Shown here one piece after another: positions 3,035 through 30,300 of a DNA stretch of 32,000 nt (the stretch's first letter is position 1; each line of letters starts with the position of its first letter). The DNA is taken from the NCBI GenBank assembly GCA_030041295.1, contig JASHOD010000038.1:2973-34972 (forward strand). The letters are read 5' to 3'. The translations under genes were made by a program, and so were the position numbers. The notes under the pieces were generated by a model. It had not been told where the DNA came from, searched no databases, and saw nothing but the letters and a program-made list of their open reading frames with translations. The DNA comes from Nitrososphaerales archaeon (GTDB lineage Archaea; Thermoproteota; Nitrososphaeria; Nitrososphaerales; CADDZS01).

Positions 3035-4417
3035 TCAATAATTCACCTCTAACGCGACTGGGGACGGTTTCTTTGCATCAACTTCCTTTATCTCTTCATC
3101 CGGTCTGCTTGAATTGAAAACCCTGATGAAAAAGTAGAATGTCGTGGGAACAATAACAAAATAGAAAACCATGATCAATATTCCGGGAATTATCAAAGAA
3201 GTGCTCTGGTTTGCAGCTTGCGCGACGGTCACAACGCCGTAAACGATCCAGGGTTGGCGTCCCACCTCGTCGGTTATCCATCCGAACTGGTACACGAGAT
3301 AGGAACCGATGGCGGCCGCAATTTGAAGATACAGTAATACCTTGGATTCGAAGGGCCTCTTCTTGATCAGCCACCCGAGAATGTAGAGAAGAAAGTATCC
3401 GCCCGCCAGAAATGCGCCAAGTACCATGAGGTCGAAGGTCGTGTTTACATAGAGAGGCGGCCAAGTTGACGGATTAAATTGGGAAAGGCCCGGCAGCAGC
3501 GATTTTCCAGTCTCCGTCTTTGCAAGGAGAGATTGCAGCCCAGGAATAGTAAGTCCGAAGAAATGTTCCCCGAGATTTGATCCTGGGGTCAGGTTATGAT
3601 CCAAGGCAGCGTACTTCTCCGGTTGATCCAGAAGAAGTGTTGCCATTTCGTTTGTCCCACTTAGCCCTGCTAAAATCAAAGTTACGATGCTCGTTACCCA
3701 TGTTAGACGTAATCCCTTCGTTAGCAGAGTTCGTTCCTCGGGTTTCCTGTTTCGGATCAGTCTATAGGCGAAATACCCACCAATTATCATCGATCCCGTA
3801 AAGACGGTCGTCGAAAGCACGTGAGCTATCTCTGCGAAAGTCGATGGAGTAAAGAACGGGGCCCATGGATTAACTCCAGTGACGACAAGCTGCCCAGTTT
3901 TCAAGCCTTGAGTAAGCGCCGACGCATTAAGGCCGTTTGGTGTATTCATCCACGCATTGACTGCTACAATCAGAACCGCAGAAATCAGAGTACCTGCTGC
4001 GACTATACAGCCTACGACGAAATGGGTCCATTTTCCTCTAAATGCGTTCGCGTAATAGACGTACAACACTAAGAAAATCGTCTCTAAGAAGAAAGCAAAT
4101 ACTTCAAAGTAGAATAACTCGATCACTCCAGTTTGTGCCCCGACTGTAATAAAGGCAGGGAACAGGGTGACGAGCTCGACCGCCATCACAATGCCACTTG
4201 CCGTACCGACTCCAAACGAAATTGTGAATACTTTGGTCAGCCTTTTCCCAAGGTTCGCAAAGTATGGATCATGTCGCCTAATCGATAGAAATTCCGCAAG
4301 AACTATTGTGATGATTAGAGCGATACTCGTAGTAACTAGTGTGATGTGGGATGCGATCGTGAACGCAAACAAGAATCGGTCAAAAGTAGTCATCGTTCCG
4401 AAAAGAAGAATGCTCAA
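3035..4417 (-). CDS. cydA: Cytochrome bd ubiquinol/menaquinol oxidase subunit I
   Basis: 460 aa. TM1 His ('FTIASHITL'), 'FYFEVFAFFLETIF', 'NAWMNTPNG', 'FAEIAHVL', and the hallmark 'GWITDEVGRQPWIVYG'. Confidence 0.9.
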   Translation of the reverse strand: MSILLFGTMTTFDRFLFAFTIASHITLVTTSIALIITIVLAEFLSIRRHDPYFANLGKRLTKVFTISFGVGTASGIVMAVELVTLFPAFITVGAQTGVIELFYFEVFAFFLETIFLVLYVYYANAFRGKWTHFVVGCIVAAGTLISAVLIVAVNAWMNTPNGLNASALTQGLKTGQLVVTGVNPWAPFFTPSTFAEIAHVLSTTVFTGSMIIGGYFAYRLIRNRKPEERTLLTKGLRLTWVTSIVTLILAGLSGTNEMATLLLDQPEKYAALDHNLTPGSNLGEHFFGLTIPGLQSLLAKTETGKSLLPGLSQFNPSTWPPLYVNTTFDLMVLGAFLAGGYFLLYILGWLIKKRPFESKVLLYLQIAAAIGSYLVYQFGWITDEVGRQPWIVYGVVTVAQAANQSTSLIIPGILIMVFYFVIVPTTFYFFIRVFNSSRPDEEIKEVDAKKPSPVALEVNY

Positions 4418-4789: not shown

Positions 4790-6454
4790 TCAGTGAACGC
4801 CGATTACTTGGCCTTCGCGAGTCAAGTAGATGTCTTCAGCAGCTGGGTGAAGCGGCAGCCCGGGCATCGTCATAATGCTCCCCATGTAAACGACATTGAA
4901 TCCCGCGCCGGCTGCGACGCGGATTTCGTCAACTTTCGTTTTGAAACCACGGGGCCTTCCCAACTTTTGCGGATCATCAGAAAGGGAAGATGGTGTCTTC
5001 GCGATGCAGACTGGAAGTTTGTCAAAGCCGTATTTTTCTATACGGGCAACATCCTTCATCGACGAGGGAGAATACTCTTCTCCAACCCCCCCATAAATCT
5101 TCGTGACTACTTTCTCAATCTTTTCGCGAGTCGTATCTTCGAGCGAATAGAGCGCTTTTGATCTGGATCCTTTCTGCGAGGCTTCAATCGCAAGCATTGC
5201 TAATTCAATAGCTCCTGAGGATCCTAGTTCAAATGCCTCCGAAACGGCGCAAGATACGTTCAGGTTTCTACAAGCTTGTTTCACCATGTTTATGTCGTCT
5301 TGGCTGTCGTCCGGGAACTTGTTGACAGCGACAATCGGGGTTATTCCGAGGAGCTCCATATTTTCAATGTGTTTTGCAAGATTCTCAACGCCCCCAATGA
5401 GCTGCCCGTAATTTTGAGAAAGTAACATGGAGGAACCTGACGTGCTAAAGTAAGTAGAACTCAAAGGCTCAGATGTTTTTGAGTGATATTTTAGCGCTCT
5501 AATTGAAGCCACTATTATTGCACAATCGACGTTGAGTTCTCCGATCCTCGAGACGATATCAACGAATTTCTCTCCTCCGAGGTCGCTTCCAAAACCTGCC
5601 TCGATGACACAATAGTCAGCCAGGCTCAACCCAAGATTTATTGAAACGAGGCTGCAAGTTCCGGTCGCCAAATTTCCGAAGGGGCCTCCGTGAATCAAGG
5701 CCGGTGTTCCCTCGCAGGTCTGTGACAGGTTCGGCAGAAAGGCATCTTTCAAAATCGCTGCCATTGCCCCTGATGCTTTGACATCCGAAGCAGTTATGGG
5801 CTCATCGTTTGAATTAGACCCAATTATTATTCTTCCGAGCTTGTCACTAAGATCAGAATAATTCTTTGAAAGACAAAACGTTGCCATGACCTCTGAAGCC
5901 GCTGTAATCATGAATCTATCCTCTCTCGGAGCCATGTGTTTTTCTTCTGAGAGCCCTACTTTGATCCTTCTCAAGGCACGGTCCTCCATGTCGACTGCTC
6001 TCGTCCAGGAAATCGAGTTTGGATCTATGCAGAGAGAATTTCCGTGGAATATTTGATTATCCACCATGGCGGCGAGCAGGTTGTGCGCTGCGCTGATCGC
6101 GTCAATGTCGCCGGTGAATCGCATGTTGATCTCGGTCGAAGGCTCGACTGTACATTTTCCTCCTCCAGTCGCCCCACCCTTCACGCCAAACAAAGGGCCG
6201 AGCGAAGGCTGCCTGATGATCGAAATGGCTCTATGACCTAATTTATTGAGTGCCATTGACAAGCCTATGGCGGTGACCGTCTTTCCCTCACCATGCGGTG
6301 TCGGGGTCATTGCCGTAACCAATACTACCTTCGCGTTTCGTCGGCGATATCGATCGATTACTTCTAAACCAATCTTTGCGGCGTAATTTCCGTAAGGCTT
6401 CACAGCGCCGAGAGGGATGTCAAGGTCTTTTGCTATTTCAAGGATATTCTTCAT
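4790..6454 (-). CDS. fhs: Formate--tetrahydrofolate ligase
   Basis: 554 aa. 'TPTPHGEGKTVTAIGL' nucleotide-binding loop and full-length colinearity with FTHFS. Its start overlaps the ilvE stop (ATGA at 6451-6454). Confidence 0.93.
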   Translation of the reverse strand: MKNILEIAKDLDIPLGAVKPYGNYAAKIGLEVIDRYRRRNAKVVLVTAMTPTPHGEGKTVTAIGLSMALNKLGHRAISIIRQPSLGPLFGVKGGATGGGKCTVEPSTEINMRFTGDIDAISAAHNLLAAMVDNQIFHGNSLCIDPNSISWTRAVDMEDRALRRIKVGLSEEKHMAPREDRFMITAASEVMATFCLSKNYSDLSDKLGRIIIGSNSNDEPITASDVKASGAMAAILKDAFLPNLSQTCEGTPALIHGGPFGNLATGTCSLVSINLGLSLADYCVIEAGFGSDLGGEKFVDIVSRIGELNVDCAIIVASIRALKYHSKTSEPLSSTYFSTSGSSMLLSQNYGQLIGGVENLAKHIENMELLGITPIVAVNKFPDDSQDDINMVKQACRNLNVSCAVSEAFELGSSGAIELAMLAIEASQKGSRSKALYSLEDTTREKIEKVVTKIYGGVGEEYSPSSMKDVARIEKYGFDKLPVCIAKTPSSLSDDPQKLGRPRGFKTKVDEIRVAAGAGFNVVYMGSIMTMPGLPLHPAAEDIYLTREGQVIGVH

Positions 6455-7567: not shown

Positions 7568-7798
7568 TTGTGCATTACTAGAGTTGGAAAGATAGTTTCG
7601 CTTAAAGAATCAAAGAGTGCGACTGTCAGATTACTCGGCGACGGTAAGATTGTTGAAGACGTCGACGTCTCTATGATTAAAGCCAAGTTAAACTCTTTTG
7701 TCGAAGTTTATGCTAACCTTGCTTTGAGGAAGCTCAGCACTGCAGAGGCGGAAGAGCGAAGTCAAGTCTGGGTAGAAATCATGCGGGCGAGGAATTGA
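7568..7798 (+). CDS. hypC: HypC/HupF-family hydrogenase maturation chaperone-like protein
   Basis: 76 aa with a TTG start, preceded by a GGGGGA ribosome-binding site 8 nt upstream. The N-terminus 'MCITRVGKIV' matches the HypC 'MC(L/I)xxPG' pattern with the essential Cys2. The C-terminus 'FVEVYANLALRKLSTAEAEE' parallels E. coli HypC 'WVLVHVGFAMSVINEAEARD'. Confidence 0.75.
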   Translation: MCITRVGKIVSLKESKSATVRLLGDGKIVEDVDVSMIKAKLNSFVEVYANLALRKLSTAEAEERSQVWVEIMRARN

Positions 7799-7802
7799 TC
7801 TC

Positions 7803-8576
7803 ATGCCATTGGTAGACGCTTCGGGGGCGCTTTTTCACGCAAAACATGCGTTCATGCCTAACAAGCTAGGTTACTGCGGTCCCGACGATAGAGGGATGAT
7901 CCTAGACCGCCTCAGAGAGTCGACGGTCGATGATAGACTTGTCGCAACGCTAAAAAATTTCGAAGCTGCGTACCCCTTCATTCGGCTAATCGGGAAATCC
8001 AATCAAAGAGACCCCTTTGATCTAAAAGTGGCAGATGCCTACTGGATCGGGAACAAACTACTAAGCAACGTATCACCGAAAGCATTTTACAATTTTGCAC
8101 TCGAAGACCTTCGAAAGAAAAACGGAGAAGAGATCCGTTCTTTGTTTCTTGCCTTGCGAGACAAGGCAATCCCTCACCACACTTTCTATGTGATAAGCAC
8201 GACCATGAGTATAATCTCGGATTTTCACCATACGAGCGGAGCCAATCCGAACAAACTCTCTGAAACAATGGATAATTGCAGAATTTCTTGGGGAGAGGCG
8301 ACCAAAATCGAACGTGATCAACTCAAGATTCGCTATCGACCACTTCGCTTCGAAGATGGATGGCTATCTCTGGGCCCAATGAAGACAAAGACTATTGAAT
8401 ACGACAGATCCGTCTCTCCGTTCGATAAGATTGCGGTAGGAGATTACGTCAGCATTCATTGGAATTTTGCATGCGAGATTCTCTCGGAAACACAGCTCAG
8501 AAATATACAAAATTACACAAAGAAGGATATCCAAGCGGTGAACGTCTTCCTGGAAGCAACAAAGCGATCCAAGTAA
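7803..8576 (+). CDS. Unknown His/Cys-rich N-terminal domain fused to a C-terminal HypC-like OB domain
   Basis: 257 aa, starting 4 nt after the hypC-like stop, with a GAGGAA ribosome-binding site. Residues ~157-240 ('DNCRISWGEATKIERDQLKIRY...VGDYVSIHWNFACEILSETQLRN') align by eye with full-length HypC ('MCIGVPGQIRTIDGNQAKVDV...VGQWVLVHVGFAMSVINEAEARD'). The N-terminal domain carries 'HAKHAFMPNKLGYCGPDD', 'IPHHTF' and 'DFHHTSG'. Confidence 0.7.
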   Translation: MPLVDASGALFHAKHAFMPNKLGYCGPDDRGMILDRLRESTVDDRLVATLKNFEAAYPFIRLIGKSNQRDPFDLKVADAYWIGNKLLSNVSPKAFYNFALEDLRKKNGEEIRSLFLALRDKAIPHHTFYVISTTMSIISDFHHTSGANPNKLSETMDNCRISWGEATKIERDQLKIRYRPLRFEDGWLSLGPMKTKTIEYDRSVSPFDKIAVGDYVSIHWNFACEILSETQLRNIQNYTKKDIQAVNVFLEATKRSK

Positions 8577-9897: not shown

Positions 9898-10230
9898 TCA
9901 GCCATCAAAGTTCTCGACTCGTTTCTCTCTCTTCAACCTAGCCTCTCTCAATTCTTCTACATTTTTTAGCATAGTGTGAAGAATATTTTCGGTTCCTCTT
10001 GATTCCTGTTCGAGTTCGCCAAGAGCCTTTTTCAATTCCAAATTATCTGATTCGCTGGCAATTTTGCGATAGCTATTTGCGAGGTCCTCTTCCACCGCTA
10101 TCCATTGGAGTACGTTCTCTGCTATTGGATCACAGTAACCCGTTCGTATGGTCTGCTCGACCTTGAGAGCCTGCCCAAGATTTTCGATCTCAACAATTAC
10201 TCTTTCACGAATCAATGAAAAATGTAGCAC
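9898..10230 (-). CDS. Hypothetical all-helical acidic protein
   Basis: 110 aa with a GTG start and a GGAGGT ribosome-binding site 9 nt upstream. Coiled-coil-like C-terminus. No family recognised. Confidence 0.5.
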   Translation of the reverse strand: MLHFSLIRERVIVEIENLGQALKVEQTIRTGYCDPIAENVLQWIAVEEDLANSYRKIASESDNLELKKALGELEQESRGTENILHTMLKNVEELREARLKREKRVENFDG

Positions 10231-10747: not shown

Positions 10748-11302
10748 ATGCCGACTGACCTTACACATTATGTTTGCAGGGTTTCGCTGAAAGGTGGAAT
10801 CAGTGTTGAACTACGACCGATACGTCCAGTCGACGAAGTGATGGAAAAGGACTTTATCCAGAGGCTAGGGCCCGACAGCGAATACAATAGATTCTTCGGC
10901 TACTTCAGGGACCCCTCTCCTGAAAAGTTAAGATCTCTATGCAACGTTGATTATGAAACAGAAATGGCAATCGTAGCTCTACTCTCCCCGCGCTCGGGTT
11001 CCGAAATGATAATCGGAGTCGGAAGAATGATCGAGTCAACTCAGAACAGGGCTGAACTTGCTGTAGTGGTAGCAGACGAATTTCAGCACTTGGGCTTAGG
11101 GACGAAACTGGTAGAAATGCTCTTAGATTTTGCCAAGGTTAGGAAATTCTCAAGCGTCTACGCCGCAGTACTTCCTGACAATGGAATCATGCTAAGGATG
11201 CTGAAGGATAAGTTCAATTTCAAGATTAAGCATACCGGAGAAGGGCTTGTAATAGCAGAACTCCCCATTGAATTAGCCAGTCCGAAACTAATGTCGCCCT
11301 AA
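10748..11302 (+). CDS. GNAT family acetyltransferase (stand-alone Pat-type C-terminal domain)
   Basis: 184 aa. 'LRPIRPVDE', 'YNRFFGYF', and the acetyl-CoA loop 'VADEFQHLGLGTKLVEML'. It resembles the GNAT domain of Pat-type protein lysine acetyltransferases. Confidence 0.8.
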   Translation: MPTDLTHYVCRVSLKGGISVELRPIRPVDEVMEKDFIQRLGPDSEYNRFFGYFRDPSPEKLRSLCNVDYETEMAIVALLSPRSGSEMIIGVGRMIESTQNRAELAVVVADEFQHLGLGTKLVEMLLDFAKVRKFSSVYAAVLPDNGIMLRMLKDKFNFKIKHTGEGLVIAELPIELASPKLMSP

Positions 11303-12786
11303 CTTATAATCCCAAGAAAAATCGCAGGAACGACCCCCGTCAAGACACTTAGAGCCAATAAGAAGACGGGTACTGCAATTGATTTGGGATATCCATTTGT
11401 CGATGTCGGGGTAGGAGAAGCCGTTGATGCGGTCTCATTACTTGGGCTCAGTACGACGTTGTTGATTATCCTAAAGTAGTATGCGATCGAGAGGAAAATA
11501 TTCAAAACAATTATGATTGCAACAAAGAAGAACAATCCACGAAGGACGGACCCGACTGCAAGCAGTGACTCGACGATCAGAAGCTCCCCCCAAAACATTC
11601 CAAAGGGAGGAGACCCGACCATAGCTAAAGAGGAAGCAGTGTAAAGAACTCCCAGAAACTTGTTCTTTCGCCCGATTCCTTTCATTTTATCGAGATCGGT
11701 CTCCTCGTACCTGTCTCGGCCGATGCCACTGAGCATGAAGAAATTTGATTTAACTAACCCGTGGTTCCAGATTTGGAATGCCGCTGCGATGAATCCGAGC
11801 GGAGTCAGAGTCGCTATTGCAGCAAGAATGTAGCCAATCTGGGCTATCGAGCTGAAGGCGAGCATCCTCCGAAGATTGTTTTGTCCCATCGCCCCGAAAT
11901 TTCCTACAAACATCGTACCAACTGCAAACCCGATTAATGCAAGCTGAATCCCATGCACGACAGAAGAAGGTACCGTGCTCGGCACGAGCGGCTGGACGAT
12001 CTTGAGCATCGCGAAAACGAGTGTCTCGTTCACTACCCGACCGTGAAGCGCCCCCGTCAAGGCGGGAGCTGAACCATAAGCATCCGGTAACCACGTGTGG
12101 AATGGGAAGATAGCCACTTCGGTGCCTAGGCCGGCGAGTACCATTACCAGCGCGAAAAGGCCAGTGCTGCTGTTTTGTTGCATTAACGAGGAAAGCGAGG
12201 AGAACTGAATTCCGCCTTGGACGGAATACAAGAGCGCTACCCCGTAGAGATACACCAGACTTCCCGCTCCAGCGAGAAAGAAGTATTTTAGAGCAGCTTC
12301 GAGCGAAACGTTTCTACGCTCGAAAGAAACGAGCCCAAAAGCTGCCACACTAATTCCGGTCCAGAAGAGAAAGAGAGTAAGAAAATCCCCTGAGGAAATC
12401 ACACCAATGGAAGATGTTACAAGTAACATCAGTAATGCGAAGAATGGTCCTGAATTTATTTTCGGGGAGAAACTTAGCATGCAATATACATCAACGGCGA
12501 TTCCCACTACAAGAATTGTGAGAATTACGAGCAAGCCTAGCCGATCAAGGGAATAAAGACTGGAGAGAACTGAAGTGATAGGCTGGAGGAGTAGCGGGGC
12601 AGAAAAGACTCCTGACCAATTCGAAAGGAAAATTAGAAGAGTAACCAAAAGCGCCACGAGCGCGACACTTCCTACAAAGTACGCCCTGTATTTTCCGTAG
12701 TATTTCTTTCCGAGATCAGTGCCAAGCGCCGCCATTGCTCCGATGAATTGTATTTCGAGCATAGTTATGAGAAAGTTCGTGGGCAT
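11299..12786 (-). CDS. nuoN: NuoN-like antiporter-type membrane subunit of a complex-I-like hydrogenase
   Basis: 495 aa and polytopic. 'SLEAALKYFFLAGAGSLVYLYGVALLYS' matches the NuoN 'EAxxKYfxLG' signature. Last gene of the operon. Confidence 0.8.
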   Translation of the reverse strand: MPTNFLITMLEIQFIGAMAALGTDLGKKYYGKYRAYFVGSVALVALLVTLLIFLSNWSGVFSAPLLLQPITSVLSSLYSLDRLGLLVILTILVVGIAVDVYCMLSFSPKINSGPFFALLMLLVTSSIGVISSGDFLTLFLFWTGISVAAFGLVSFERRNVSLEAALKYFFLAGAGSLVYLYGVALLYSVQGGIQFSSLSSLMQQNSSTGLFALVMVLAGLGTEVAIFPFHTWLPDAYGSAPALTGALHGRVVNETLVFAMLKIVQPLVPSTVPSSVVHGIQLALIGFAVGTMFVGNFGAMGQNNLRRMLAFSSIAQIGYILAAIATLTPLGFIAAAFQIWNHGLVKSNFFMLSGIGRDRYEETDLDKMKGIGRKNKFLGVLYTASSLAMVGSPPFGMFWGELLIVESLLAVGSVLRGLFFFVAIIIVLNIFLSIAYYFRIINNVVLSPSNETASTASPTPTSTNGYPKSIAVPVFLLALSVLTGVVPAIFLGIIS

Positions 12787-12789
12787 CGA

Positions 12790-14529
12790 TTAGATTACTC
12801 CTATCACTATCAAAACCGCCGTGATGATTAGTGCCGCGAAAAGTATCGCAATGTTATTCTCCAAAACGCCCGTCTGAAGCCCTTTTGCCCCCCGAACAAG
12901 GGGGCCGGTAATCCATTTTTCAAGAGAAAGATATGCCTTGTCAAATTCAAAATCTTCGACAAGCACGGTTATCACGCCATGCAGAAACGGGCTTGTCTCT
13001 ATCAGAGAATTCTTCGAAGCGACCTTCTTGACGAAAGCATAGTAGGAAATTCCAAGACCTACAAATAGAACTGCTACGGCTGTTGAAGCGGATTCTAGGT
13101 TCAAAGACATATTCAGGGAAGGAATGAAAATCTTCTGAACGCTAAGGACTAGCCAGCCGACTACGACACAGATTACAAGCGTAATCATCGGAGCGACCAT
13201 AAGGAGTTCAGATTCCTTTGCATCGCCCTTTCGTTCACCGTGAAACACCCGAAATAGCGCCCTAAAGCCGTAGAGAGAAGTTAATACGGAAGCAAGGGCT
13301 ATTACTAGGAAAGCGTAGTCATTTGTGGCAAGAGCTCCCGAAAGAATTGCGTCTTTGGTCCAAAATCCCAGAAGGGGCGGAAGGCCTACCATCGAGAGCA
13401 TTGAAAACAGGAAAGCGAGGTACGTATATTTCATCACTTGACGCAGTCCTCCCATGCTCGCTATGTTTCTCGTACCAATTGCTTCGATCACGGATCCCGC
13501 GGCCATGAAAGCTAAAGCCTTGAAGACTCCCTGTCCAATCAGCTGATAAATAGCTCCGGATGTATTCTGTAAACCTACAGCGGCGAACATCAATCCCAAC
13601 TGACTGATTGTGGAATAGGCAAGGATTCTCTTGAGGTCCTGTTCTGCGCAGGCGCAAGATGCCCCAACGACCATACTCAGGAGACCAATGACAATCAGTG
13701 CAGTCGAAAGAGACTGATACGCGGAATAGATTGGAGACAATCTAATAATGAGATACACACCTGCGTTGACCATCGTAGCGGCGTGAATTAGGGCGCTGAC
13801 CGGTGTTGGACCTTCCATTGCATCGGGAAGCCAGACATGTAGCGGAACTTGGGCTGATTTACCCATTGCTCCTACTATAGTTAGTGCGCCGATGAGAAAC
13901 CAAGTAGAGTTGAGGGTATGAGTTTGAACATAAGTAGAAATCGACGCGAGATTTGTTGTTCCTAAAGTGGTAAGGACAAGAATCACAGCAATAAAGAGAG
14001 CAATGTCGCCAAACCTTGTTACTACGAATGCTTTGAGACCTGCTTTTCTTGCGGCTTCCCTATCGGACCAAAAGGCGATCAGGAGTGCAGAGCATATTCC
14101 GACAATTTCCCAGAAGAAATAAAGTTGGATTAGATTTCCAGCCATAACGAGACCGAGCATTGCTCCGATGAAAATAAGAACAAGAGAATAGAATCTAGCC
14201 TGCCCCTGCTCGAGTTTCATGTTCTCTACGGCATAGAAGACTATAACGAAGGAAAGGAACGAGACGAATGCTGCAAGAAGTACGGATAGTCCGTCTACTT
14301 GAACTTGCAAGGATACCGAAGTGTTAGAGACTATAATCCAGTTTCCGACACTTTCGGTAAAGGAGCTTATAAAACTAAAGGACTGATAGATTCCGACGCC
14401 TGCTGTGATCGCGCTTACGACAACTGCGAACCATTTACACGCCTTGTCGTTTACGAAGGATACCAGAATAACGAATGGAGAAGCTACAAACGGAAACAAC
14501 CAAATTATCCAGGGAAGTAAATAGTTCAC
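12790..14529 (-). CDS. nuoL: NuoL-like antiporter-type membrane subunit
   Basis: 579 aa. 'FFWEIVGICSALLIAFW' (NuoL 'WExvGlxSylLIgfW'). The C-terminal segment 'FLHGVITVLVEDFEFDKAYLSLEKWI' followed by a final TM resembles the NuoL lateral-helix region. Confidence 0.85.
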   Translation of the reverse strand: MNYLLPWIIWLFPFVASPFVILVSFVNDKACKWFAVVVSAITAGVGIYQSFSFISSFTESVGNWIIVSNTSVSLQVQVDGLSVLLAAFVSFLSFVIVFYAVENMKLEQGQARFYSLVLIFIGAMLGLVMAGNLIQLYFFWEIVGICSALLIAFWSDREAARKAGLKAFVVTRFGDIALFIAVILVLTTLGTTNLASISTYVQTHTLNSTWFLIGALTIVGAMGKSAQVPLHVWLPDAMEGPTPVSALIHAATMVNAGVYLIIRLSPIYSAYQSLSTALIVIGLLSMVVGASCACAEQDLKRILAYSTISQLGLMFAAVGLQNTSGAIYQLIGQGVFKALAFMAAGSVIEAIGTRNIASMGGLRQVMKYTYLAFLFSMLSMVGLPPLLGFWTKDAILSGALATNDYAFLVIALASVLTSLYGFRALFRVFHGERKGDAKESELLMVAPMITLVICVVVGWLVLSVQKIFIPSLNMSLNLESASTAVAVLFVGLGISYYAFVKKVASKNSLIETSPFLHGVITVLVEDFEFDKAYLSLEKWITGPLVRGAKGLQTGVLENNIAILFAALIITAVLIVIGVI

Positions 14530-14846
14530 CCGCGCAACCTCCTAATCTCTGATGGGTTGAGAGTACCGTACTTTCGATAGACGCCTACGATGATCGCTAT
14601 TCCCACAGCTTCGACACTAGCGCTTGCGAGTATCGAGAAGAGCAGGAGTGAATCCGAGACGACGGGAAACTCGGATCCTAGGCTCGAAGAAAATAGTGCG
14701 AGATTTGCGCCAATTACTACGACTTGGAAAGACATAATCGTCTTGATCAGATGTTTTGACAAACTCATTGAACCGATGCCAAGGAAGATCAGTATAGTCG
14801 CCGTTGTTAGAAAGACAATCTGGTTCGTTAGAACTAAAGCCGTCAA
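14526..14846 (-). CDS. nuoK: NuoK-like membrane subunit
   Basis: 106 aa with 3 TM. 'ASASVEAVGIAIIVGVYRKYG' matches the NuoK C-terminal motif. Overlaps nuoL and nuoJ by 4 nt each. Confidence 0.75.
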   Translation of the reverse strand: MTALVLTNQIVFLTTATILIFLGIGSMSLSKHLIKTIMSFQVVVIGANLALFSSSLGSEFPVVSDSLLLFSILASASVEAVGIAIIVGVYRKYGTLNPSEIRRLRG

Positions 14847-15343
14847 GATTGGGAGTCCTCCTTAGAAAACAAATTAGTGACAACAACCATCGCTGAAGCG
14901 AATATTACGAGAAGAATCAACAAATCCCACGGTCTGTATTCCCAGACAAATTGAAGGAGATTGGAAGGCGAGAATGCTCCTGCGCTGCTGCTTGCAGCTG
15001 AACTTGAATTAGGAAGCCCTACAAAGAAAGGCGACGCGCCGACGACAAAAACCCCAATAGCTGTCGCAAGTAGAATGATCTTTAGATTATGGGCACCTAT
15101 GTCGAGTTTTGACTCCCCCGTCATGAGAATAGCCGTGAGCATTAACACGGACACGGCCCCGGCGAAGGTAATGATTTCTAACAAGCCCACTATGATGCTG
15201 CCGTATATCGTGAAGATTATCCCGAGGGCGATGCTTGCATAAAAGAGTCCAATTAACGAAACAGAAACAGATTTGGAAAATAGTGCAACAACGACGGCGG
15301 CGATCAACACTACTGAAAGAATGAGCGCAACCTCAGCTGACAT
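14843..15343 (-). CDS. nuoJ: NuoJ-like membrane subunit
   Basis: 166 aa. 'GLLEIITFAGAVSVLMLTAILM' closely parallels E. coli NuoJ 'GALEIIVYAGAIMVLFVFVVMM'. Confidence 0.75.
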   Translation of the reverse strand: MSAEVALILSVVLIAAVVVALFSKSVSVSLIGLFYASIALGIIFTIYGSIIVGLLEIITFAGAVSVLMLTAILMTGESKLDIGAHNLKIILLATAIGVFVVGASPFFVGLPNSSSAASSSAGAFSPSNLLQFVWEYRPWDLLILLVIFASAMVVVTNLFSKEDSQS

Positions 15344-15770
15344 TTTTGAGTGCCTTGTCCATAACGAGAGAATCTTTGTTTACAGTCGCAAGCTCAAATT
15401 CGTGGGTGAGTACTAGTGCTCCGAACCTGCAATCGTCGACGCATTGGCCACATGAAATGCAACTGTATAGGTCAAACGTAGGCCTCTTGGTCTCGATTTC
15501 TCTTGATCCAATTTTTCGCGTTCCTGTGTGAACCATCTGGATAACCGCGGCAGGACAAACGGCCTCGCATACGCCGCAGCCGGTGCATTTGACTGGATCG
15601 ATGTCAAGCTTGCCGCGGAATCTCTCGGCCACCTGAGGAGCTCCGAATGGATACTCCTTAGTTATGGGTCGTTGGAATGCAGTTCGGAACATTTCACCGA
15701 GAGCGCTTCCTACCTTTCTTCGACTTGCCCTTCCCTTTTCTCCTTTCGATCCATTTTCATTGGCTTTCAA
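15333..15770 (-). CDS. nuoI: NuoI-like 2x[4Fe-4S] ferredoxin subunit
   Basis: 145 aa. Two cluster motifs, 'CTGCGVCEAVCP' and 'CISCGQCVDDCR'. Confidence 0.85.
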   Translation of the reverse strand: MKANENGSKGEKGRASRRKVGSALGEMFRTAFQRPITKEYPFGAPQVAERFRGKLDIDPVKCTGCGVCEAVCPAAVIQMVHTGTRKIGSREIETKRPTFDLYSCISCGQCVDDCRFGALVLTHEFELATVNKDSLVMDKALKNVS

Positions 15771-15777
15771 TTTCTGC

Positions 15778-16749
15778 TCACCTCAGTACTAGAACAAGTC
15801 CTAGCTGCAAAAGACTCAATGGTGTTAGGACAGTCCAGAAAAGATTTGCGGCTTGGGAGATCCGGACTCTGGCAAGAGCTGTTTTGATTGAAAAAATGGC
15901 AAACCCTATCGCGAAAACCTTGAGCAAGAAATAGCCTAGGTATACTATGCTCTGGAGTAGAGGAATCTGAGTAACTACCGGACCCGAGGTTCCGCCTAAA
16001 AACAAACTTGCAGCAAGAGCCGAAAGGAAAACGTAGCTCAAGCTCTCTGTTAGCTTCACATAAGCCAGAGGTCGTCCAGAAAGCTCCGTCATCCATCCCG
16101 CAGCAATCTCTGTTTTTGCGTCCGGAATATCAAACGGTGGTTTTTCGAGCTCGGCCAAAGACGCCACAATGAACACACTGAAACTTATTGGAGCGAACGC
16201 AATATACCAATGAAAGTCAGCTTGAGATTGTACTATGCCACTTATTGAAAGAGATCCGGCTATCACGGCGGGTGTAATTATCGAAATTAAAAGTGGGATC
16301 TCGAAACTTGCGTACTGCATTATCAATCTTCCAGTAGCCACTGTCGAAAACCTTCCAGCGGAAGCGTATCCGAGCATGCTAGCCATAAGCGTAGAAAAGG
16401 CGAGAATGAAGAGAATAAACAACAAATCAAAAGGGCTCGACACGATGGCGCTCAATCCGATTACTGGAATGAAAATTGTCCCGATTGCTGGGGCTGCAAA
16501 GAATAGTGGCGGCCCCCACTCGAATACGAATTTATCGGAAAACTCTGGAATAATTTCTTCCTTCGTCGTGAGTTTGAAGAAATCTGCTACCGGTTGTAGG
16601 ACGCCTCTTGGGCCCGCAAGAATTGGACCCAATCTTCCTTGCATTCTAGCTGTGGTTTTCCTATCCAGCCATTCGAATACAAAGGATAGCCAGACGAAGA
16701 AGGTGAGCCCTGGGAACAGAAGTATTTCTATGACCTGAAGGGTGTCCAA
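15778..16749 (-). CDS. nuoH: NuoH-like membrane subunit
   Basis: 323 aa. 'RKTTARMQGRLGPILAGPRGVLQPVADFFKLTTKEEIIP' is the canonical NuoH/HycD/MbhM N-terminal motif. Confidence 0.85.
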   Translation of the reverse strand: MDTLQVIEILLFPGLTFFVWLSFVFEWLDRKTTARMQGRLGPILAGPRGVLQPVADFFKLTTKEEIIPEFSDKFVFEWGPPLFFAAPAIGTIFIPVIGLSAIVSSPFDLLFILFILAFSTLMASMLGYASAGRFSTVATGRLIMQYASFEIPLLISIITPAVIAGSLSISGIVQSQADFHWYIAFAPISFSVFIVASLAELEKPPFDIPDAKTEIAAGWMTELSGRPLAYVKLTESLSYVFLSALAASLFLGGTSGPVVTQIPLLQSIVYLGYFLLKVFAIGFAIFSIKTALARVRISQAANLFWTVLTPLSLLQLGLVLVLR

Positions 16750-16752
16750 TGC

Positions 16753-18036
16753 TCAGCTTGTCCTACCTCTTGTCTGCATTCCGTTGTAGTATCTGATTCC
16801 AAAATCGCGAAGTTCCCTCCCGCGGATAGACCACTCCTTTTGCTTGTCGACTTGCAGAACGGCGATTCTATCCATGCAGCCAAAACAGGGGTCCATTCCT
16901 GTGAGAACTATCGGAACATCGGCGAGAGTGTATCCCTTTAGCATTGAGATTACTGTAAGGACGTTTGCCATGGTTGGTGTCCTAATTTTCACGCGTTCTG
17001 GGATGGTACCTCCTGGTGAGCGTACATAGTAGAATAATTCACCTCGCGGAGCTTCGACATGGAACGCATTTTCTCCCTTCGGAACAGATCTAGGAGCCGT
17101 CAACTTCACCGGGCCACTGGGGATCTTTTCCAATGCCTCTAGTACTAATCTGCATGATTCAAGAGCTTCTTCTGCCCTAATAACTAGGAGCGAAGCAATA
17201 TCTCCATCGGTGCTCGACTTTACTTCAGGTATTATCTCGTCGTAGGCCGCATAAGGATCTTCGACCCTTACATCCCTTGCAATCCCTGTGCTCCGTAATA
17301 GTGGGCCCACCGGGGAGAATTTTCTCGCAATATCTGAATCGATCTTTCCGACTCCCTTCGTTCTAGATACGAGGGTTTCTTCGCTTGTGACCAGTTCTTT
17401 GTAGTATTTGATTCTCCTTTGGAGATAGTCCATTTCTTTCTTAATGCGGGGCTCTATGTTGTCAGGTAGATCTTTTCTTACACCAGTTAATGTACTGTAT
17501 GATTTGTGTACCCTGTTTCCTGTGATAGCTTCTACAAGATCGAGGACGTGCTCGCGATCTTTCCAGATCCACATGAAGAGCGTATCAAAACCAGTCCAAT
17601 ATCCGACCAGCCCGAGCCAGAGCATGTGTGAGTGGATACGCTCGAGTTCGGCCACGATTACCCTGATGTAGCGAGCTCGCCTCGGAACTTCGAACTGCAA
17701 AATGCCCTCGACAGCCTGCACGTATGATAAGCTGTGCGCAAAACTGCATATCCCGCAGATTCGCTCGAATAGGTAGATGTTCTTGACCCATGTCCTATCC
17801 TGAGCGGCCCGCTCTATTCCTCTGTGTACAAAACCGATTCTCGGTATGGCATCGACAATTTTTTCCCCCTCCAGTATGAGTTTGAAATACTCGGGTTCAT
17901 GAAGCGCGGGATGAACCGGTCCAAAGGGCATAAGATTCTCGGGCGAATACTCCATCAAGCCCGCCGAGACTTCTTTTCTCGGAACCTGACCTTCCTCGCC
18001 GGGAATTGGCTGGTAGTCTTTGTTCTCTTCACTCAA
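16753..18036 (-). CDS. nuoD: NuoD-family subunit that retains both [NiFe] Cys pairs, i.e. a group 4 [NiFe]-hydrogenase large subunit with a 37-aa C-terminal extension
   Basis: 427 aa. N-terminal 'RICGICSFAH' (nt 17734-17763) and C-terminal 'DPCFGCMDR' (nt 16867-16893), followed by 'IAVLQVDKQKEWSIRG...RGRTS'. Bona fide NuoD has lost these cysteines. Confidence 0.9.
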   Translation of the reverse strand: MSEENKDYQPIPGEEGQVPRKEVSAGLMEYSPENLMPFGPVHPALHEPEYFKLILEGEKIVDAIPRIGFVHRGIERAAQDRTWVKNIYLFERICGICSFAHSLSYVQAVEGILQFEVPRRARYIRVIVAELERIHSHMLWLGLVGYWTGFDTLFMWIWKDREHVLDLVEAITGNRVHKSYSTLTGVRKDLPDNIEPRIKKEMDYLQRRIKYYKELVTSEETLVSRTKGVGKIDSDIARKFSPVGPLLRSTGIARDVRVEDPYAAYDEIIPEVKSSTDGDIASLLVIRAEEALESCRLVLEALEKIPSGPVKLTAPRSVPKGENAFHVEAPRGELFYYVRSPGGTIPERVKIRTPTMANVLTVISMLKGYTLADVPIVLTGMDPCFGCMDRIAVLQVDKQKEWSIRGRELRDFGIRYYNGMQTRGRTS

Positions 18037-18490
18037 GTCCCATCATCTTTCTAATTTTTGCAGGATCTGCTTCCTTTCTCAGTGGAGGGGGCGCTTCAGC
18101 TGGATAAGAATCTGGCAGGATCAGTTTTTGTCGGCAGACAGGATTTCCTTCGAACTTTACTCCCAGTAGATCTTTTACTTCTGCCTCATAGAGTAGTGCG
18201 GCCGGAACTATGTCGGAGATTGAATCTATGGTGGAGTCTTGTTTTGGCACGCTGGTCTTAATGGAAAGAAATTCCTTTCCTTTCCAGAAATGGTAAATGA
18301 CGGTAATCATTGCTCCATCATCATATCCTGAAATCGTGGATAGATGGTAATAGTCCGGCATTTCTTGCTTGAAAATTCTGAAGGCATCCCGGATCCTATC
18401 AGGGCATACGGTCAGGATAGTCGACTTACGATCCCTTGTGATTTGGGCTTCGGATCTTACGGCTATTTCCTCGAGCTTTGCATCACTCAC
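18029..18490 (-). CDS. nuoC: NuoC-like subunit
   Basis: 153 aa. 'YHLSTISGYDDG...VIYHFW' and 'ALLYEAEVKDLLGVKFEGNP' match the NuoC/HycE-N/MbhK family. Confidence 0.8.
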   Translation of the reverse strand: MSDAKLEEIAVRSEAQITRDRKSTILTVCPDRIRDAFRIFKQEMPDYYHLSTISGYDDGAMITVIYHFWKGKEFLSIKTSVPKQDSTIDSISDIVPAALLYEAEVKDLLGVKFEGNPVCRQKLILPDSYPAEAPPPLRKEADPAKIRKMMGLE

Positions 18491-18492
18491 GA

Positions 18493-19005
18493 CTATTGTG
18501 ACACCTTACCTTGTCCCAACTGAATGTCCGTGCCCTCTATCTCATCCTTCTCATCTTCTTTCGGCTCCTCTGCGACCACTTCTCGTCTCGGATGCTCACC
18601 AACTAGCGTCAAAATTCCATATAGGATCGCTTCAGGTCGTGGAGGGCATCCGGGAATGAAGAGGTTGACGGGTATGACCTTGTCCACCCCATGGCCAACG
18701 TTGTAGCATCCTTTCATCACGCCTCCGCCTAGCGCACATGCCCCAACTGCCACGACGAGCCGAGGATCAGGCATCTGTTCATAGATTCTCTTCAAGATGT
18801 CTCGCGTCATCGAGTTTGCAGTCCCTGTCACCAGGAGGACGTCCGCGTGGCGAGGGCTCGCGACTAACTCGACTCCTAGTCTTTCAGCATCATAGCGCGG
18901 AATGAGCGAAGCAAGAATTTCAATATCGCATCCGTTGCAAGACGCAGCATTGACGACGAAAACCCAGATTGACCTCTTCCTAGCCCACTTTGTTATGGCA
19001 CTCAA
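18493..19005 (-). CDS. nuoB: NuoB-family [4Fe-4S] subunit of the hydrogenase small-subunit type
   Basis: 170 aa. 'SCNGCDIE' has the C-x-x-C form found in group 4 hydrogenases, not the tandem CC of NuoB. Also 'VGACALGGG' and 'IPGCPPRPE'. Confidence 0.9.
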   Translation of the reverse strand: MSAITKWARKRSIWVFVVNAASCNGCDIEILASLIPRYDAERLGVELVASPRHADVLLVTGTANSMTRDILKRIYEQMPDPRLVVAVGACALGGGVMKGCYNVGHGVDKVIPVNLFIPGCPPRPEAILYGILTLVGEHPRREVVAEEPKEDEKDEIEGTDIQLGQGKVSQ

Positions 19006-19346
19006 ATCTTACCCCCTCCCACGATTAAGAACCACCAGACACTGATCATTATGACCGCGCTGCCCCCTAGGAGAAAGAGCAAGGGGTAGAAATTGCTCGC
19101 CGCTGCGTATGATCCAGCGAGTAAAAGTGCGAAAGCTTCTACGATTAAAAAGAGCATACCGAACACGAAAAGCTCTGATCTGTACACTCCTCTCTTCGGG
19201 ACATCGAGCTCTCCTCCCGTGAAGGGTTCATACTTTACTCCCTTTCCAGACGATCTCTTACCGAGCTTCCCTGCTATAAGATAAATTATGATATCGACAA
19301 CAACAATGAGGACAGGAGCTACTACGACGTCAAGGGTTGATGTCAA
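19002..19346 (-). CDS. nuoA: NuoA-like small membrane subunit
   Basis: 114 aa with 3 TM. 'KYEPFTGGEL...RGVYRSELFVFGMLFLIVEAFALLL' resembles NuoA 'YE(C/S)G...fy...lFiiFDvE'. Its position before nuoB fits. Confidence 0.6.
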   Translation of the reverse strand: MTSTLDVVVAPVLIVVVDIIIYLIAGKLGKRSSGKGVKYEPFTGGELDVPKRGVYRSELFVFGMLFLIVEAFALLLAGSYAAASNFYPLLFLLGGSAVIMISVWWFLIVGGGKI

Positions 19347-19876
19347 TTTTTGTCTATCTCCATTCCAACTATGTAATCGCTCACTCTTTCGACGATTCGA
19401 TCTGCGGAAGAACGCACCGTGTTCGAAAGACCCTCTCCTATCTCCAGGTTCTCTGGCTGAATTCCTACTACGAAAATGCCCGCGAGGCTTGGCCGGAGAT
19501 CAGAAAAAAGTTTCAGCGGAATATTGTGGGTTCCGAAGAACCCGTATTTAGTGTCTGCTAAACTAGCAAAAACAATTGACCCGGGATCTAGGTTTGCCTC
19601 TACTGAATCAATGATTAGAAAAGTTTCGTTAAGCCTCTTCGTTCTCGCGAAATTTGAAAAAACTCTCTCCGGCGTTAACTCCTTGGTAATGCGAACATAT
19701 TTGTTGGGATTGGCTCCGTACCTACGTCTCAGTTTTGAAGCAACATAAAGGCCCGCAAAATCATCACCCTTTATCGGATTGCCAACACCTACAAGTGTCA
19801 CATGCTTTGGCCTATCGACGGAGTCCAAGAAGGCTAGCAACTCATTGGCCCACTTTTCGTCCATAACTTTGCTCAC
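19343..19876 (-). CDS. hycI: HycI-type [NiFe]-hydrogenase maturation endopeptidase
   Basis: 177 aa with a GTG start and a G-rich ribosome-binding site. 'LVGVGNPIKGDDFAG', 'FLIIDSVEANLDPGSI', 'GTHNIPL' and 'VVGIQPENL' parallel E. coli HycI 'LLCVGNSMMGDDGAG', 'LLIVDATDMGLNPGEI', 'TTHNMPL' and 'FLGIQPDIV'. Its stop overlaps the nuoA-like start by 4 nt. Confidence 0.85.
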   Translation of the reverse strand: MSKVMDEKWANELLAFLDSVDRPKHVTLVGVGNPIKGDDFAGLYVASKLRRRYGANPNKYVRITKELTPERVFSNFARTKRLNETFLIIDSVEANLDPGSIVFASLADTKYGFFGTHNIPLKLFSDLRPSLAGIFVVGIQPENLEIGEGLSNTVRSSADRIVERVSDYIVGMEIDKN

Positions 19877-20001
19877 CCAAACGTCCCCCCTTCGCTACAA
19901 GGGCGTTAAAATCAAAACTCAAAAACTTATTCCGATTTATATCGAGAGGTTGTTCTTCCTTGAATTAGACTTGGCTTTTGGACTTTAAAGAGAATACTCA
20001 G

Positions 20002-28896: not shown

Positions 28897-30294
28897 TTGA
28901 GTAATAGCAAGAACAGAGACTCATTGGACTTCTTCTTCAACCCAGCGAGCGTTGCGATCATTGGGGCATCAAAGACCCCGGGAAAAATAGGTCACGAACT
29001 ACTCAGGAATTTGACCCAATCTGGATTTGGCGGGAAGATATTTCCGGTAAATCCCAAAGCCGGTAAGATTCTAGGGTACATTTGTTACAAGAGTATCGTC
29101 GATGTCCCTTCTCCCGTGGATCTCGGTATAGTAGTTGTACCGGCAGATTTGGTAGAAGGCGTAACTCGCGATTGTGTTACAAAGCAAGTGAAAGGAATCA
29201 TAATAATTACATCAGGGTTCTCCGAAGTCGGTAACAAAGAACTCGAGGAAAGAATTGTAGAAATAGCAAGAGGCAAGCTTCGAATAGTCGGACCCAACAC
29301 ATTTGGAATTTACTACGCTGGTACTAAAATGAACGCCACGTTCGGCCCGACAAAGGTTCTCGAGGGGCACACGGCATTCATCACCCAGTCAGGAGCTCTC
29401 GGTCTTGCCCTAATGGACTGGACCACCGAAGAGAAATACGGTGTATCTGCAATCGTCAGCATCGGGAACAAGTCAGATGTCGACGACGCAGACTTGATAG
29501 AGTATTTCTCTAGTGACTCTCTGACAAGATCGATTTTGATATATATGGAGGGGCTGAAAGGCGGAAGAAAATTCTACGAAATTTCGAAAAGCGCAACCAG
29601 AAAGAAACCAATCGTAGTCATAAAGGCTGGACGGTCCAAGAGGGGTGCCCAAGCTGCTTCCTCGCATACAGGCTCTATCGCAGGACAAGATACGGTCTTC
29701 TCGGCAGCTTTTGAACAAGCTGGAATAATGCGAGCCGAGGGCATGACTCAGGCATTTGATTGGATACAAGCGATTAACGAGAATCCCGTACCAAAAGGAG
29801 AGAATTTGGCGATAGTTACAAACGGTGGAGGAGTTGGAGTGCTTGCGACAGATAAATGCGAAGCCCTGGGCTTGAAACTAACGGACATTTCTACAAATTT
29901 GGCAGATGATCTGAAACAGATCATGCCCAGTTTCGGATCTGTAAAAAATCCGATCGATATTACTGCAAATGCAGATGACGTTCTATACGCAAAAGTTCTT
30001 GATGTCTTATTTCGAAGTGAGGACGTTGATTCGATTATAGCGTTATTCTGCCAGACAGCGAACATTGATCCCGTGCTATTTGCCCAAGCTATCATTTCCT
30101 TGCGTAACAAAGAGAATTTCAAAAAGCCATTGACATGCGCATTTATAGGCGGTCATTTATCTCAGATTGCTTATTCGACAATGCTAGAAGGACAATTTGC
30201 CGCCTATCCTACGGCAGAGCGCGCGGTCGATTCGATGTACGCTCTAACAACAAGATATAGACAATTGAGTCGGTGGAAAGCGGAAGAGGTTTGA
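28897..30294 (+). CDS. acdA: ADP-forming acetyl-CoA synthetase, alpha subunit
   Basis: 465 aa with a TTG start. 'FFNPASVAIIGASKTPGKIG' (CoA-binding Rossmann fold) and the phosphohistidine loop 'ASSHTGSIAG'. Confidence 0.9.
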   Translation: MSNSKNRDSLDFFFNPASVAIIGASKTPGKIGHELLRNLTQSGFGGKIFPVNPKAGKILGYICYKSIVDVPSPVDLGIVVVPADLVEGVTRDCVTKQVKGIIIITSGFSEVGNKELEERIVEIARGKLRIVGPNTFGIYYAGTKMNATFGPTKVLEGHTAFITQSGALGLALMDWTTEEKYGVSAIVSIGNKSDVDDADLIEYFSSDSLTRSILIYMEGLKGGRKFYEISKSATRKKPIVVIKAGRSKRGAQAASSHTGSIAGQDTVFSAAFEQAGIMRAEGMTQAFDWIQAINENPVPKGENLAIVTNGGGVGVLATDKCEALGLKLTDISTNLADDLKQIMPSFGSVKNPIDITANADDVLYAKVLDVLFRSEDVDSIIALFCQTANIDPVLFAQAIISLRNKENFKKPLTCAFIGGHLSQIAYSTMLEGQFAAYPTAERAVDSMYALTTRYRQLSRWKAEEV

Positions 30295-30300
30295 AGGACG

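Follow-up and report, generated by a model that had tools for sequence, protein, structure and literature searches.

A predicted ten-subunit energy-converting [NiFe] hydrogenase in complex I gene order from non-ammonia-oxidising Nitrososphaerota

The closest described counterpart of the system reported here is Hfo (Loh, Hervé & Brune 2021, PMC7886697), a [NiFe] hydrogenase from Bathy-6 Bathyarchaeia whose 11 subunits are encoded in Fpo/Nuo order and whose L1 and L2 motifs are intact. Almost identical clusters were reported from Ca. Methanomethylicus mesodigestum and Pyrodictium delaneyi, and HydDB puts Hfo in the heterogeneous subgroup 4g, where these clusters correspond to lineage 4g-6 of that study and its sister groups (PMC7886697). 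A NiFe-bearing 11-subunit ancestor of complex I had been predicted earlier by Moparthi & Hägerhäll (2011, PMC3144371), at a time when all 11-subunit complexes then known lacked the C-terminal Cys pair. Here, we analyse an operon of this type in a stretch of 32,000 nucleotides (nt) from contig JASHOD010000038.1 of a Nitrososphaerales archaeon (hereafter the window), in which 11 consecutive minus-strand open reading frames (ORFs; 19876..11299) run hycI-A-B-C-D-H-I-J-K-L-N, where the single letters denote homologues of the complex I subunits NuoA to NuoN. Neighbouring genes overlap by up to 11 nt or lie up to 7 nt apart, and both the ORFs and their protein families bear out the original prediction, made from the sequence alone, of eleven packed or overlapping genes in complex I order. 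The same order is common to about 36 species-level loci, with hycI elsewhere in the locus and on the opposite strand in two of them (L001 and L040). Most of these loci belong to non-ammonia-oxidising Nitrososphaerota of soil or peat, and three to Thermoplasmata. The accompanying claim that no known group 4 hydrogenase has the full nuo-like order has to be given up, given the publication of Hfo in 2021 (PMC7886697) and a further operon of this kind on a Bathyarchaeota contig (L051). The complex I-like [NiFe] architecture is not new, and the window operon is a shorter form of it in a new host phylum.

Two other group 4 enzymes provide points of reference. MBH of P. furiosus (group 4d, 6cfw) is a ferredoxin-dependent, ion-translocating [NiFe] hydrogenase of 14 subunits, among them an Mrp-type sodium module (MbhA-C and MbhF) and only one that is antiporter-like, and its genes are ordered differently. 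So are those of Hyc/Hyf of E. coli (group 4a, 7z0s), in which C and D are fused in the large subunit, homologues of NuoA and NuoJ are missing, and modules for formate dehydrogenase and HycB are present. In the host phylum, uptake hydrogenases (groups 1 and 2) are stated to be absent (PMC11630254), and a review reports only Cys-less Ehr complexes from ammonia-oxidising Thaumarchaeota (PMC10432482). We found no description of an enzyme like the one encoded in the window from Thaumarchaeota/Nitrososphaerota in open-access papers, the only literature covered, where such an absence is not proof.

The large subunit and the [NiFe] site

The large subunit D (NuoD homologue, 427 amino acids (aa), 16753..18036, on the minus strand like all genes of the operon) matches Complex1_49kDa (E=6e-65) and NiFeSe_Hases (E=5e-14). 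Alignment to HycE and MbhL placed the two Cys pairs of the original prediction exactly. The N-terminal pair lies in the L1 motif RICGICSFAH (residues 92-101, 17734..17763), which aligns with RVCGICGFAH of HycE (E. coli, 7z0s) and RMCGICSFSH of MbhL (P. furiosus, 6cfw), and the C-terminal pair lies in the L2 motif DPCFGCMDR (residues 382-390, 16867..16893), which aligns with DPCYSCTDR of HycE. Conservation of these ligands in close orthologues, a check proposed together with the original prediction, was found throughout: the CGIC of L1 is invariant and DPCFGCMDR is kept letter for letter in 120/120 of the closest database clusters (69-100% identical), so that all four Cys are present in every one. 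This sets the family apart from Ehr, a group-4-like complex in which the Cys ligands are lacking. It also differs from the NuoD proteins that were compared (E. coli NuoCD and Infirmifilum NuoD), which have no Cys at the L1 and L2 positions and whose chain stops at the DR of L2.

In contrast to these NuoD proteins, 119 of the 120 relatives carry a tail of 30-44 aa past the L2 Arg. In the window, this C-terminal extension comprises 37 residues (16756..16866), aligns with the HycE tail past the L2 Arg and is the presumed substrate of a HycI-type endopeptidase. HycI removes the C-terminal tail of HycE, and the first gene of the window operon (19343..19876, 177 aa) encodes a maturation endopeptidase of this type, with scores of 71.5 bits for TIGR00072 (cutoff 47.45) and 24.4 bits for Pfam HycI (cutoff 23). 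This protein is 27% identical to E. coli HycI and contains a GVGNPIKGDD motif.

To place the large subunit among its relatives, 1.84 billion representative proteins, clustered at 50% identity, were searched. All of the nearest ~100 clusters (418 to ~270 bits) consist of hydrogenase large subunits with the Cys motifs, and Cys-less NuoD-type proteins appear only at 267 bits or less. BLAST gave 392 bits for the Bathyarchaeota hydrogenase versus 217 for Infirmifilum NuoD, and the leading PDB matches were HycE (272 bits), MbhL (260) and Nqo4 (234). The best NCBIfam model for D is NuoD, at 336 bits and thus under its cutoff of 360. An AlphaFold model of the large subunit, made with 53 close homologues, had a predicted local distance difference test (pLDDT) score of 61, with active-site segments below 50, and was not used for Cys geometry or a fold search. 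Judged from its sequence, the operon encodes a genuine group 4 [NiFe] hydrogenase in complex I gene order.

The hydrogenase small subunit B (NuoB homologue, 170 aa, 18493..19005; Oxidored_q6, E=2.5e-31) contains an SCNGCDIE segment that aligns with MbhJ and HycG at a site where complex I has a tandem CC, and the alignment upheld the proposal that B has the hydrogenase-type CNGC in place of the NuoB tandem Cys. B has four Cys (C23, C26, C90 and C120) for one [4Fe-4S] cluster, and its best PDB matches are MbhJ (171 bits), HycG (137) and NDUFS7 (133). The NuoC/30-kDa homologue is encoded by a separate gene (153 aa, 18029..18490; Pfam Complex1_30kDa, E=1e-21), and its closest relatives are the C parts of fused CD proteins from Infirmifilum and Bathyarchaeota. 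The NuoI-like 2x[4Fe-4S] ferredoxin subunit (145 aa, 15333..15770; TIGR01971 NuoI, E=2e-24) has two CxxCxxCxxxC motifs and is the probable entry point for electrons from ferredoxin.

The membrane arm and the relationship to Hfo

Within the membrane arm, the NuoH-like anchor (323 aa, 15778..16749; Pfam NADHdh, E=2e-78) scores 122 bits against E. coli NuoH versus 69 against HycD in BLAST. The NuoK/MrpC/MbhG-like subunit (106 aa, 14526..14846; Pfam Oxidored_q2, E=3e-14) has MbhG (43 bits), MbsG (37) and NdhE (31) as its best PDB matches. Subunits A (114 aa, 19002..19346) and J (166 aa, 14843..15343) are weak as single sequences, with no match for A and an Oxidored_q3 match below cutoff for J (E=3e-4), and were identified with profiles of 25 orthologues by a PDB search and hhalign. 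The profile of A, a subunit with three transmembrane (TM) segments, found ND3 in the PDB (E=0.039) and aligned with NuoA in hhalign (82% probability, E=1e-5), with a conserved loop, KYEPFTGGE, that corresponds to PFE(C/S)G of NuoA. The J profile found NuoJ both in the PDB (E=1e-3) and with hhalign (97% probability, E=1e-11). The two profiles matched ND3/NuoA and NuoJ, respectively, and nothing else.

Only two Proton_antipo_M proteins are encoded in the operon, and all loci of the family have L and one further antiporter-like subunit. L (579 aa, 12790..14529) is NuoL-type, scoring 430 bits and above cutoff with TIGR01974, and matches E. coli NuoL (276 bits), MrpA (218) and MbhH (178) in the PDB. 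It retains the residues equivalent to E144, D178, K229, H254, K342, K399 and D400 of E. coli NuoL, and its C-terminus, predicted to consist of an amphipathic stretch of ~55 residues and a terminal TM helix, appears to be lateral-helix-like. The second subunit (NuoN/MrpD/MbhH-like, 495 aa, 11299..12786; Proton_antipo_M, E=3e-51) is encoded by the last structural gene. Its best NCBIfam model is NuoN (192 bits, with NuoM at 175), and its PDB matches are MbsH (137 bits), MbhH (114) and NuoN (105). Since this subunit pairs with N of the Bathyarchaeota operon (160 bits) rather than with M (119 bits), M is identified as the missing pump. No MrpE-, F- or G-like ORF was found among the 11 operon ORFs, and the operon hence lacks an Mrp-type Na+ module such as MbhABCF.

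As a separate observation on L, the positions of the E. coli NuoL central-axis residues H334 and H338 are both occupied by Gln in the window, whereas the L homologues of Infirmifilum, Anaerolineales and Bathyarchaeota retain these His residues.

Subunit affinities therefore form a mosaic, in which B is nearest to MbhJ, D to HycE and MbhL, and K to MbhG, L is NuoL-type, and H is closer to NuoH than to HycD. The suggestion that the locus is an intermediate between group 4 hydrogenases and complex I stands insofar as these affinities place it near the transition, but it does not extend to a D subunit that is uniquely close to NuoD. That possibility was considered and rejected: hydrogenases of Thermoprotei and Bathyarchaeota are nearer to the Cys-less clade, and the window family ranks merely among the closer hydrogenases.

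Compared with MBH, whose MbhJ, MbhL and MbhG are among the best matches of B, D and K and whose mechanism is the one proposed for the window enzyme, the operon has no Mrp module, two antiporter-like subunits, a NuoL-like L and nuo order. With 11-subunit complex I (NuoABCDHIJKLMN/Fpo-like), it shares gene order and repertoire, M excepted, along with a NuoH-like H and a NuoL-type L with its charged residues and lateral-helix-like tail. It differs from complex I in that NiFe ligands replace the quinone-site residues of D, B carries CxxC where complex I has CC, the tail of D is cleavable and has its own protease, and there are two pumps instead of three. Likenesses to Hyc/Hyf are confined to HycE as the best PDB match of D, HycI-type processing and the small-subunit motif, whereas H and L are far more similar to their Nuo counterparts than to HycD and HycC. 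An enzyme with two pumps and a NuoL-type lateral helix would offer a minimal system in which to study the way in which antiporter modules are driven by redox chemistry at the NiFe/quinone site.

For every subunit of the window operon, the closest counterparts come from other Hfo-like operons and not from canonical Nuo or Hyc/Hyf. The operon shares with Hfo a Nuo/Fpo-colinear order, L1 and L2 in D, the lack of FpoF/FpoO, NuoEFG and an Mrp Na+ module, and a presumed ferredoxin partner, and both enzymes are known from genomes alone. Unlike Hfo, the window operon has ten structural subunits instead of 11 and two antiporter-like subunits (no M) instead of three, is led by hycI, and is found in Nitrososphaerota and in nested Thermoplasmata copies from soil and peat, at loci that carry the lineage-specific accessory genes described below (a 110-aa ORF, orf110, a hypC-like gene and a DUF6390 gene).

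A neighbour-joining (NJ) tree of the 150 nearest 50%-identity representatives plus HycE and MbhL (357 columns, 100 bootstraps) recovered the Nitrososphaerota family as a clade of its own with 100% bootstrap support, at no more than 49% identity to outgroups. This is the only resolved node of a distance-based tree that was built without curated references for HydDB subgroups 4a-4i; a sister link to the Bathyarchaeota Hfo-like sequence received 24% bootstrap support, and deep nodes received 0-24%. The nearest outgroup of the window large subunit is P0121 of L051, with 49% identity. HydDB would most likely assign the window enzyme to subgroup 4g. The original prediction had envisaged that the large subunit might fall inside a defined subgroup sharing this gene order; this is essentially the case, yet the clade is separate and its operon one pump shorter.

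Comparable operons vary in order and gene fusion. The Bathyarchaeota operon of L051 runs A-B-CD-H-I-J-K-L-M-N, and thus encodes a fused CD where the window has separate C and D genes. In Infirmifilum sp. NZ (L052, CP094288.1, 9580-21629), the order is B-CD-(A fused to I)-H-J-K-L-N, where the A-I fusion was recognised because window A matches the N-terminal part of the 230-aa Infirmifilum ‘I’ protein. A circularly permuted ten-subunit set, J-K-L-N-A-B-C-D-H-I, is found in an Anaerolineales metagenome-assembled genome (MAG) and in another bacterium (L054, 4557-13019, and L056, 4968-13025), with hycI at the end of the L054 operon. Another archaeal contig has D-B-I-A-H-J-K-x-N-N and an Asgard contig has A-B-CD-H-I. 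The Infirmifilum Hfo-like operon lies directly upstream of a canonical, Cys-less nuoABCDHIJ operon, and since the genus is cultured, these relatives provide a route to the first biochemistry on subgroup 4g. Together with Hfo, the window family represents an extant example of the NiFe-bearing, complex I-shaped enzyme that has been postulated as the ancestor of complex I (PMC3144371), although, unlike that theoretical ancestor, it has one pump fewer.

Electron donor and direction of the reaction

In our view, the ten structural genes probably specify an energy-converting [NiFe] hydrogenase of the Hfo type, which is bound to the membrane and evolves H2 from ferredoxin with ion export. Reduced ferredoxin would donate electrons to the two [4Fe-4S] clusters of the NuoI-like subunit. 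The one [4Fe-4S] cluster in the NuoB-like subunit would relay them to the [NiFe] centre of D, at which protons would be reduced to H2. The free energy could then be transmitted through a complex I-type membrane arm formed by H, A, J and K with the N-like subunit and L, and H+ (or Na+) would be exported for ATP synthesis. The reaction is probably reversible, as group 4 enzymes are (PMC5037454). Maturation of the large subunit would involve HycI, which would cut the 37-residue tail, and Hyp proteins.

Neither the window nor the conserved flanks of 36 related loci contain NuoEFG, FpoF, formate dehydrogenase (FDH) or carbon monoxide dehydrogenase (CODH), as had been noted for the operon and its surroundings. 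This absence of a dedicated donor module supports the earlier proposal that ferredoxin is the likely partner, and we infer the partner, the H2-evolving direction, the ion and the stoichiometry.

Three further genes of the window bear on the lifestyle of the host. These encode cytochrome bd oxidase subunit I (3035-4417, minus strand), a formate-tetrahydrofolate (THF) ligase 5 kb from the operon (4790-6454, minus strand) and the two subunits of an ADP-forming acetyl-CoA synthetase (28897-31047, plus strand). The last enzyme is typical of archaeal fermenters. In combination, these genes hint at a microaerobic or fermentative lifestyle, and they fit a facultatively anaerobic, fermentative use of the hydrogenase without proving one.

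A number of points weigh against a ferredoxin-dependent, H2-evolving and ion-pumping enzyme. The partner and the direction are deduced only from the absence of another donor module, and Loh et al. consider Hfo more likely to run in reverse (PMC7886697). Members of subgroup 4g have never been assayed (PMC7886697), so the enzyme type remains biochemically uncharacterised, as originally suggested. In addition, hypB, D, E and F were not seen in the 32-kb window or in any Nitrososphaerota-labelled locus, and a search with HypD from a family locus returned named top matches that were all from Thermoplasmata, which is uninformative on Nitrososphaerota. The window encodes a cytochrome bd oxidase, and Gagatemarchaeaceae have been described as aerobic heterotrophs in a study that makes no mention of hydrogenase, nuo or ferredoxin (PMC10640624). 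Finally, the N-like subunit departs from the canonical antiporter-like residues: the TM5 Glu (E144 of E. coli NuoM, E133 of NuoN) is replaced by Thr both in the window and in L001, its closest relative, although 17 other N-like orthologues retain it, and a Glu replaces the TM7 Lys throughout the family, a substitution shared with the N-like subunits of Infirmifilum and Bathyarchaeota, with Glu also at the TM12 position. Pumping by this subunit may consequently be altered.

The main rival explanation invokes the same enzyme working in the opposite direction, where H2 is oxidised and the membrane potential drives electrons uphill to ferredoxin. Eha, Ehb and Ech run in this direction in methanogens. 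It is also the published proposal for Hfo in acetogenic Bathyarchaeia (PMC7886697) and is permitted by the reversibility of group 4 enzymes (PMC5037454), and the formate-THF ligase gene 5 kb away could hint at C1 metabolism that needs a low-potential reductant. Conversely, the window shows no obvious autotrophic pathway that would consume ferredoxin, be it Wood-Ljungdahl, methanogenesis or another, the acetyl-CoA synthetase fits fermentation, and the published description of the family is heterotrophic (PMC10640624). Sequence cannot settle the direction of the reaction, and we regard H2 oxidation as a serious but rather unlikely alternative to H2 evolution.

A second rival retains the hydrogenase but supplies it from another donor (formate, CO, F420H2 or NAD(P)H) through a module encoded elsewhere in the genome. 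Formate hydrogenlyase (FHL), Coo and Fpo systems encode the donor module in or beside the operon, and neither the window nor the conserved neighbourhood of the 36 loci contains such a module. Unlinked partner genes could exist, given that the window covers only 32 kb of a 35.5-kb contig, and some group 4g clusters adjoin FrhB (PMC12533140), but we find this arrangement improbable.

A ferredoxin:quinone complex of the complex I/Fpo type that merely retains ancestral Cys, as could be proposed from the complex I-like gene order, the nature of L, H, A and J, the NuoD model as best NCBIfam match of D (336 bits, below the cutoff of 360) and the terminal oxidase genes of these organisms (in the window and in PMC10640624), is very unlikely because the four Cys are invariant and the L1/L2 contexts and tail are kept in 120 relatives down to 69% identity, hycI, hypA and hypC are co-located, the motif of B is CxxC and not CC, Cys-less NuoD proteins lie much further away, and Infirmifilum has Hfo-like and canonical nuo operons side by side and hence as distinct enzymes.

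Maturation genes, hosts and distribution

Beyond hycI, maturation genes lie near the operon in the window and in related loci. In the window, a hypC-like chaperone gene (7568..7798, plus strand, 76 aa) lies 3.5 kb from the operon. Its product, which starts (M)CITRVGKI and thus has an N-terminal MC, matches HupF_HypC at 30.3 bits (cutoff 28.5, E=4.8e-7) and covers the full profile. Genes of this kind are near the operon in 21 loci, the window included, and 21 related loci have hypA next to it. A flanking set of hypC, D, E and F is restricted to L013, L031 and L032, all of which are labelled Thermoplasmata.

The hypC-like gene is always followed by a gene for a DUF6390 protein (7803..8576, plus strand, 257 aa; Pfam DUF6390, E=8e-53), which starts 4 nt after it in the window. 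This pair is convergent relative to the operon and occurs in 21 loci. A total of 243 DUF6390 homologues were found, apparently confined to Nitrososphaerota. An AlphaFold2 (AF2) model of the protein (pLDDT 89) comprises an all-helical domain of unknown type and a HypC-like OB domain at the C-terminus, which resembles the HypC structures 2z1c_B and 3vys_A, and Cys25, His126, Cys159 and His219 are invariant. These features make DUF6390 a candidate lineage-specific hydrogenase maturation factor.

A conserved soluble ORF of 110 aa (9898..10230, minus strand) has counterparts of 107-110 aa directly after N and on the same strand in 31 related loci, including those labelled Thermoplasmata, and is therefore probably a twelfth gene of the operon. 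It has no significant family match and is a candidate accessory or assembly factor. It is not recognisable as HycH, since tblastn with E. coli HycH gave no homologue in any locus. A tblastn search of the outgroup loci found none of the three accessory genes (orf110, hypC-like and DUF6390).

The host is a non-ammonia-oxidising member of the Nitrososphaerota (Thaumarchaeota), and the named relatives are Nitrososphaerales/Nitrososphaerota MAGs from soil, peat (SPRUCE) and Danish soils, one of which is labelled Ca. Gagatemarchaeaceae. Non-ammonia-oxidising Thaumarchaeota (Group I.1c/Gagatemarchaeaceae and relatives) are abundant in acidic soils and peat, and a hydrogenase in ~36 species would add anoxic H2 production or consumption to their role in soil carbon cycling. 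In the three Thermoplasmata-labelled loci, the large subunits are 69-71% identical to that of the window and nest inside the Nitrososphaerota family tree, while the flanking HypD has only Thermoplasmata among its named relatives, which together suggest that the operon moved horizontally into Thermoplasmata.

Two loci have irregular D genes. An orphan second copy without other subunits (L037, 9901-11198) is found ~145 kb away from L018 on the same contig, and consists of the last ~26 residues of C and a frame-shifted large subunit (79% and 66% identity), representing either a pseudogene or a long-read frameshift error. In L040, the D gene is split over two frames.

A more far-reaching interpretation would treat the family as a separate, streamlined lineage with its own maturation and assembly set, serving an unrecognised anaerobic H2 metabolism in Group I.1c, with a horizontal move into acid-soil Thermoplasmata. 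Here, orf110 and the hypC-like/DUF6390 pair may act alongside the canonical Hyp pathway or take over some of its steps. We put this forward tentatively, as a possibility that is more doubtful than not; if it were true, soil Thaumarchaeota that are supposedly aerobic would gain an H2-evolving or H2-using anaerobic metabolism.

In the window, the 110-aa ORF is separated from N by a GNAT acetyltransferase gene (10748..11302, plus strand), which converges on N with an overlap of 4 nt. This gene is absent from the gene clusters that are common to at least six related loci. An Rfam scan of the window gave no match. At the other end of the operon, a TATA-like element, GATATAAAT (19935-19943, minus strand), lies ~60 nt 5′ of the hycI start and may be the operon promoter.

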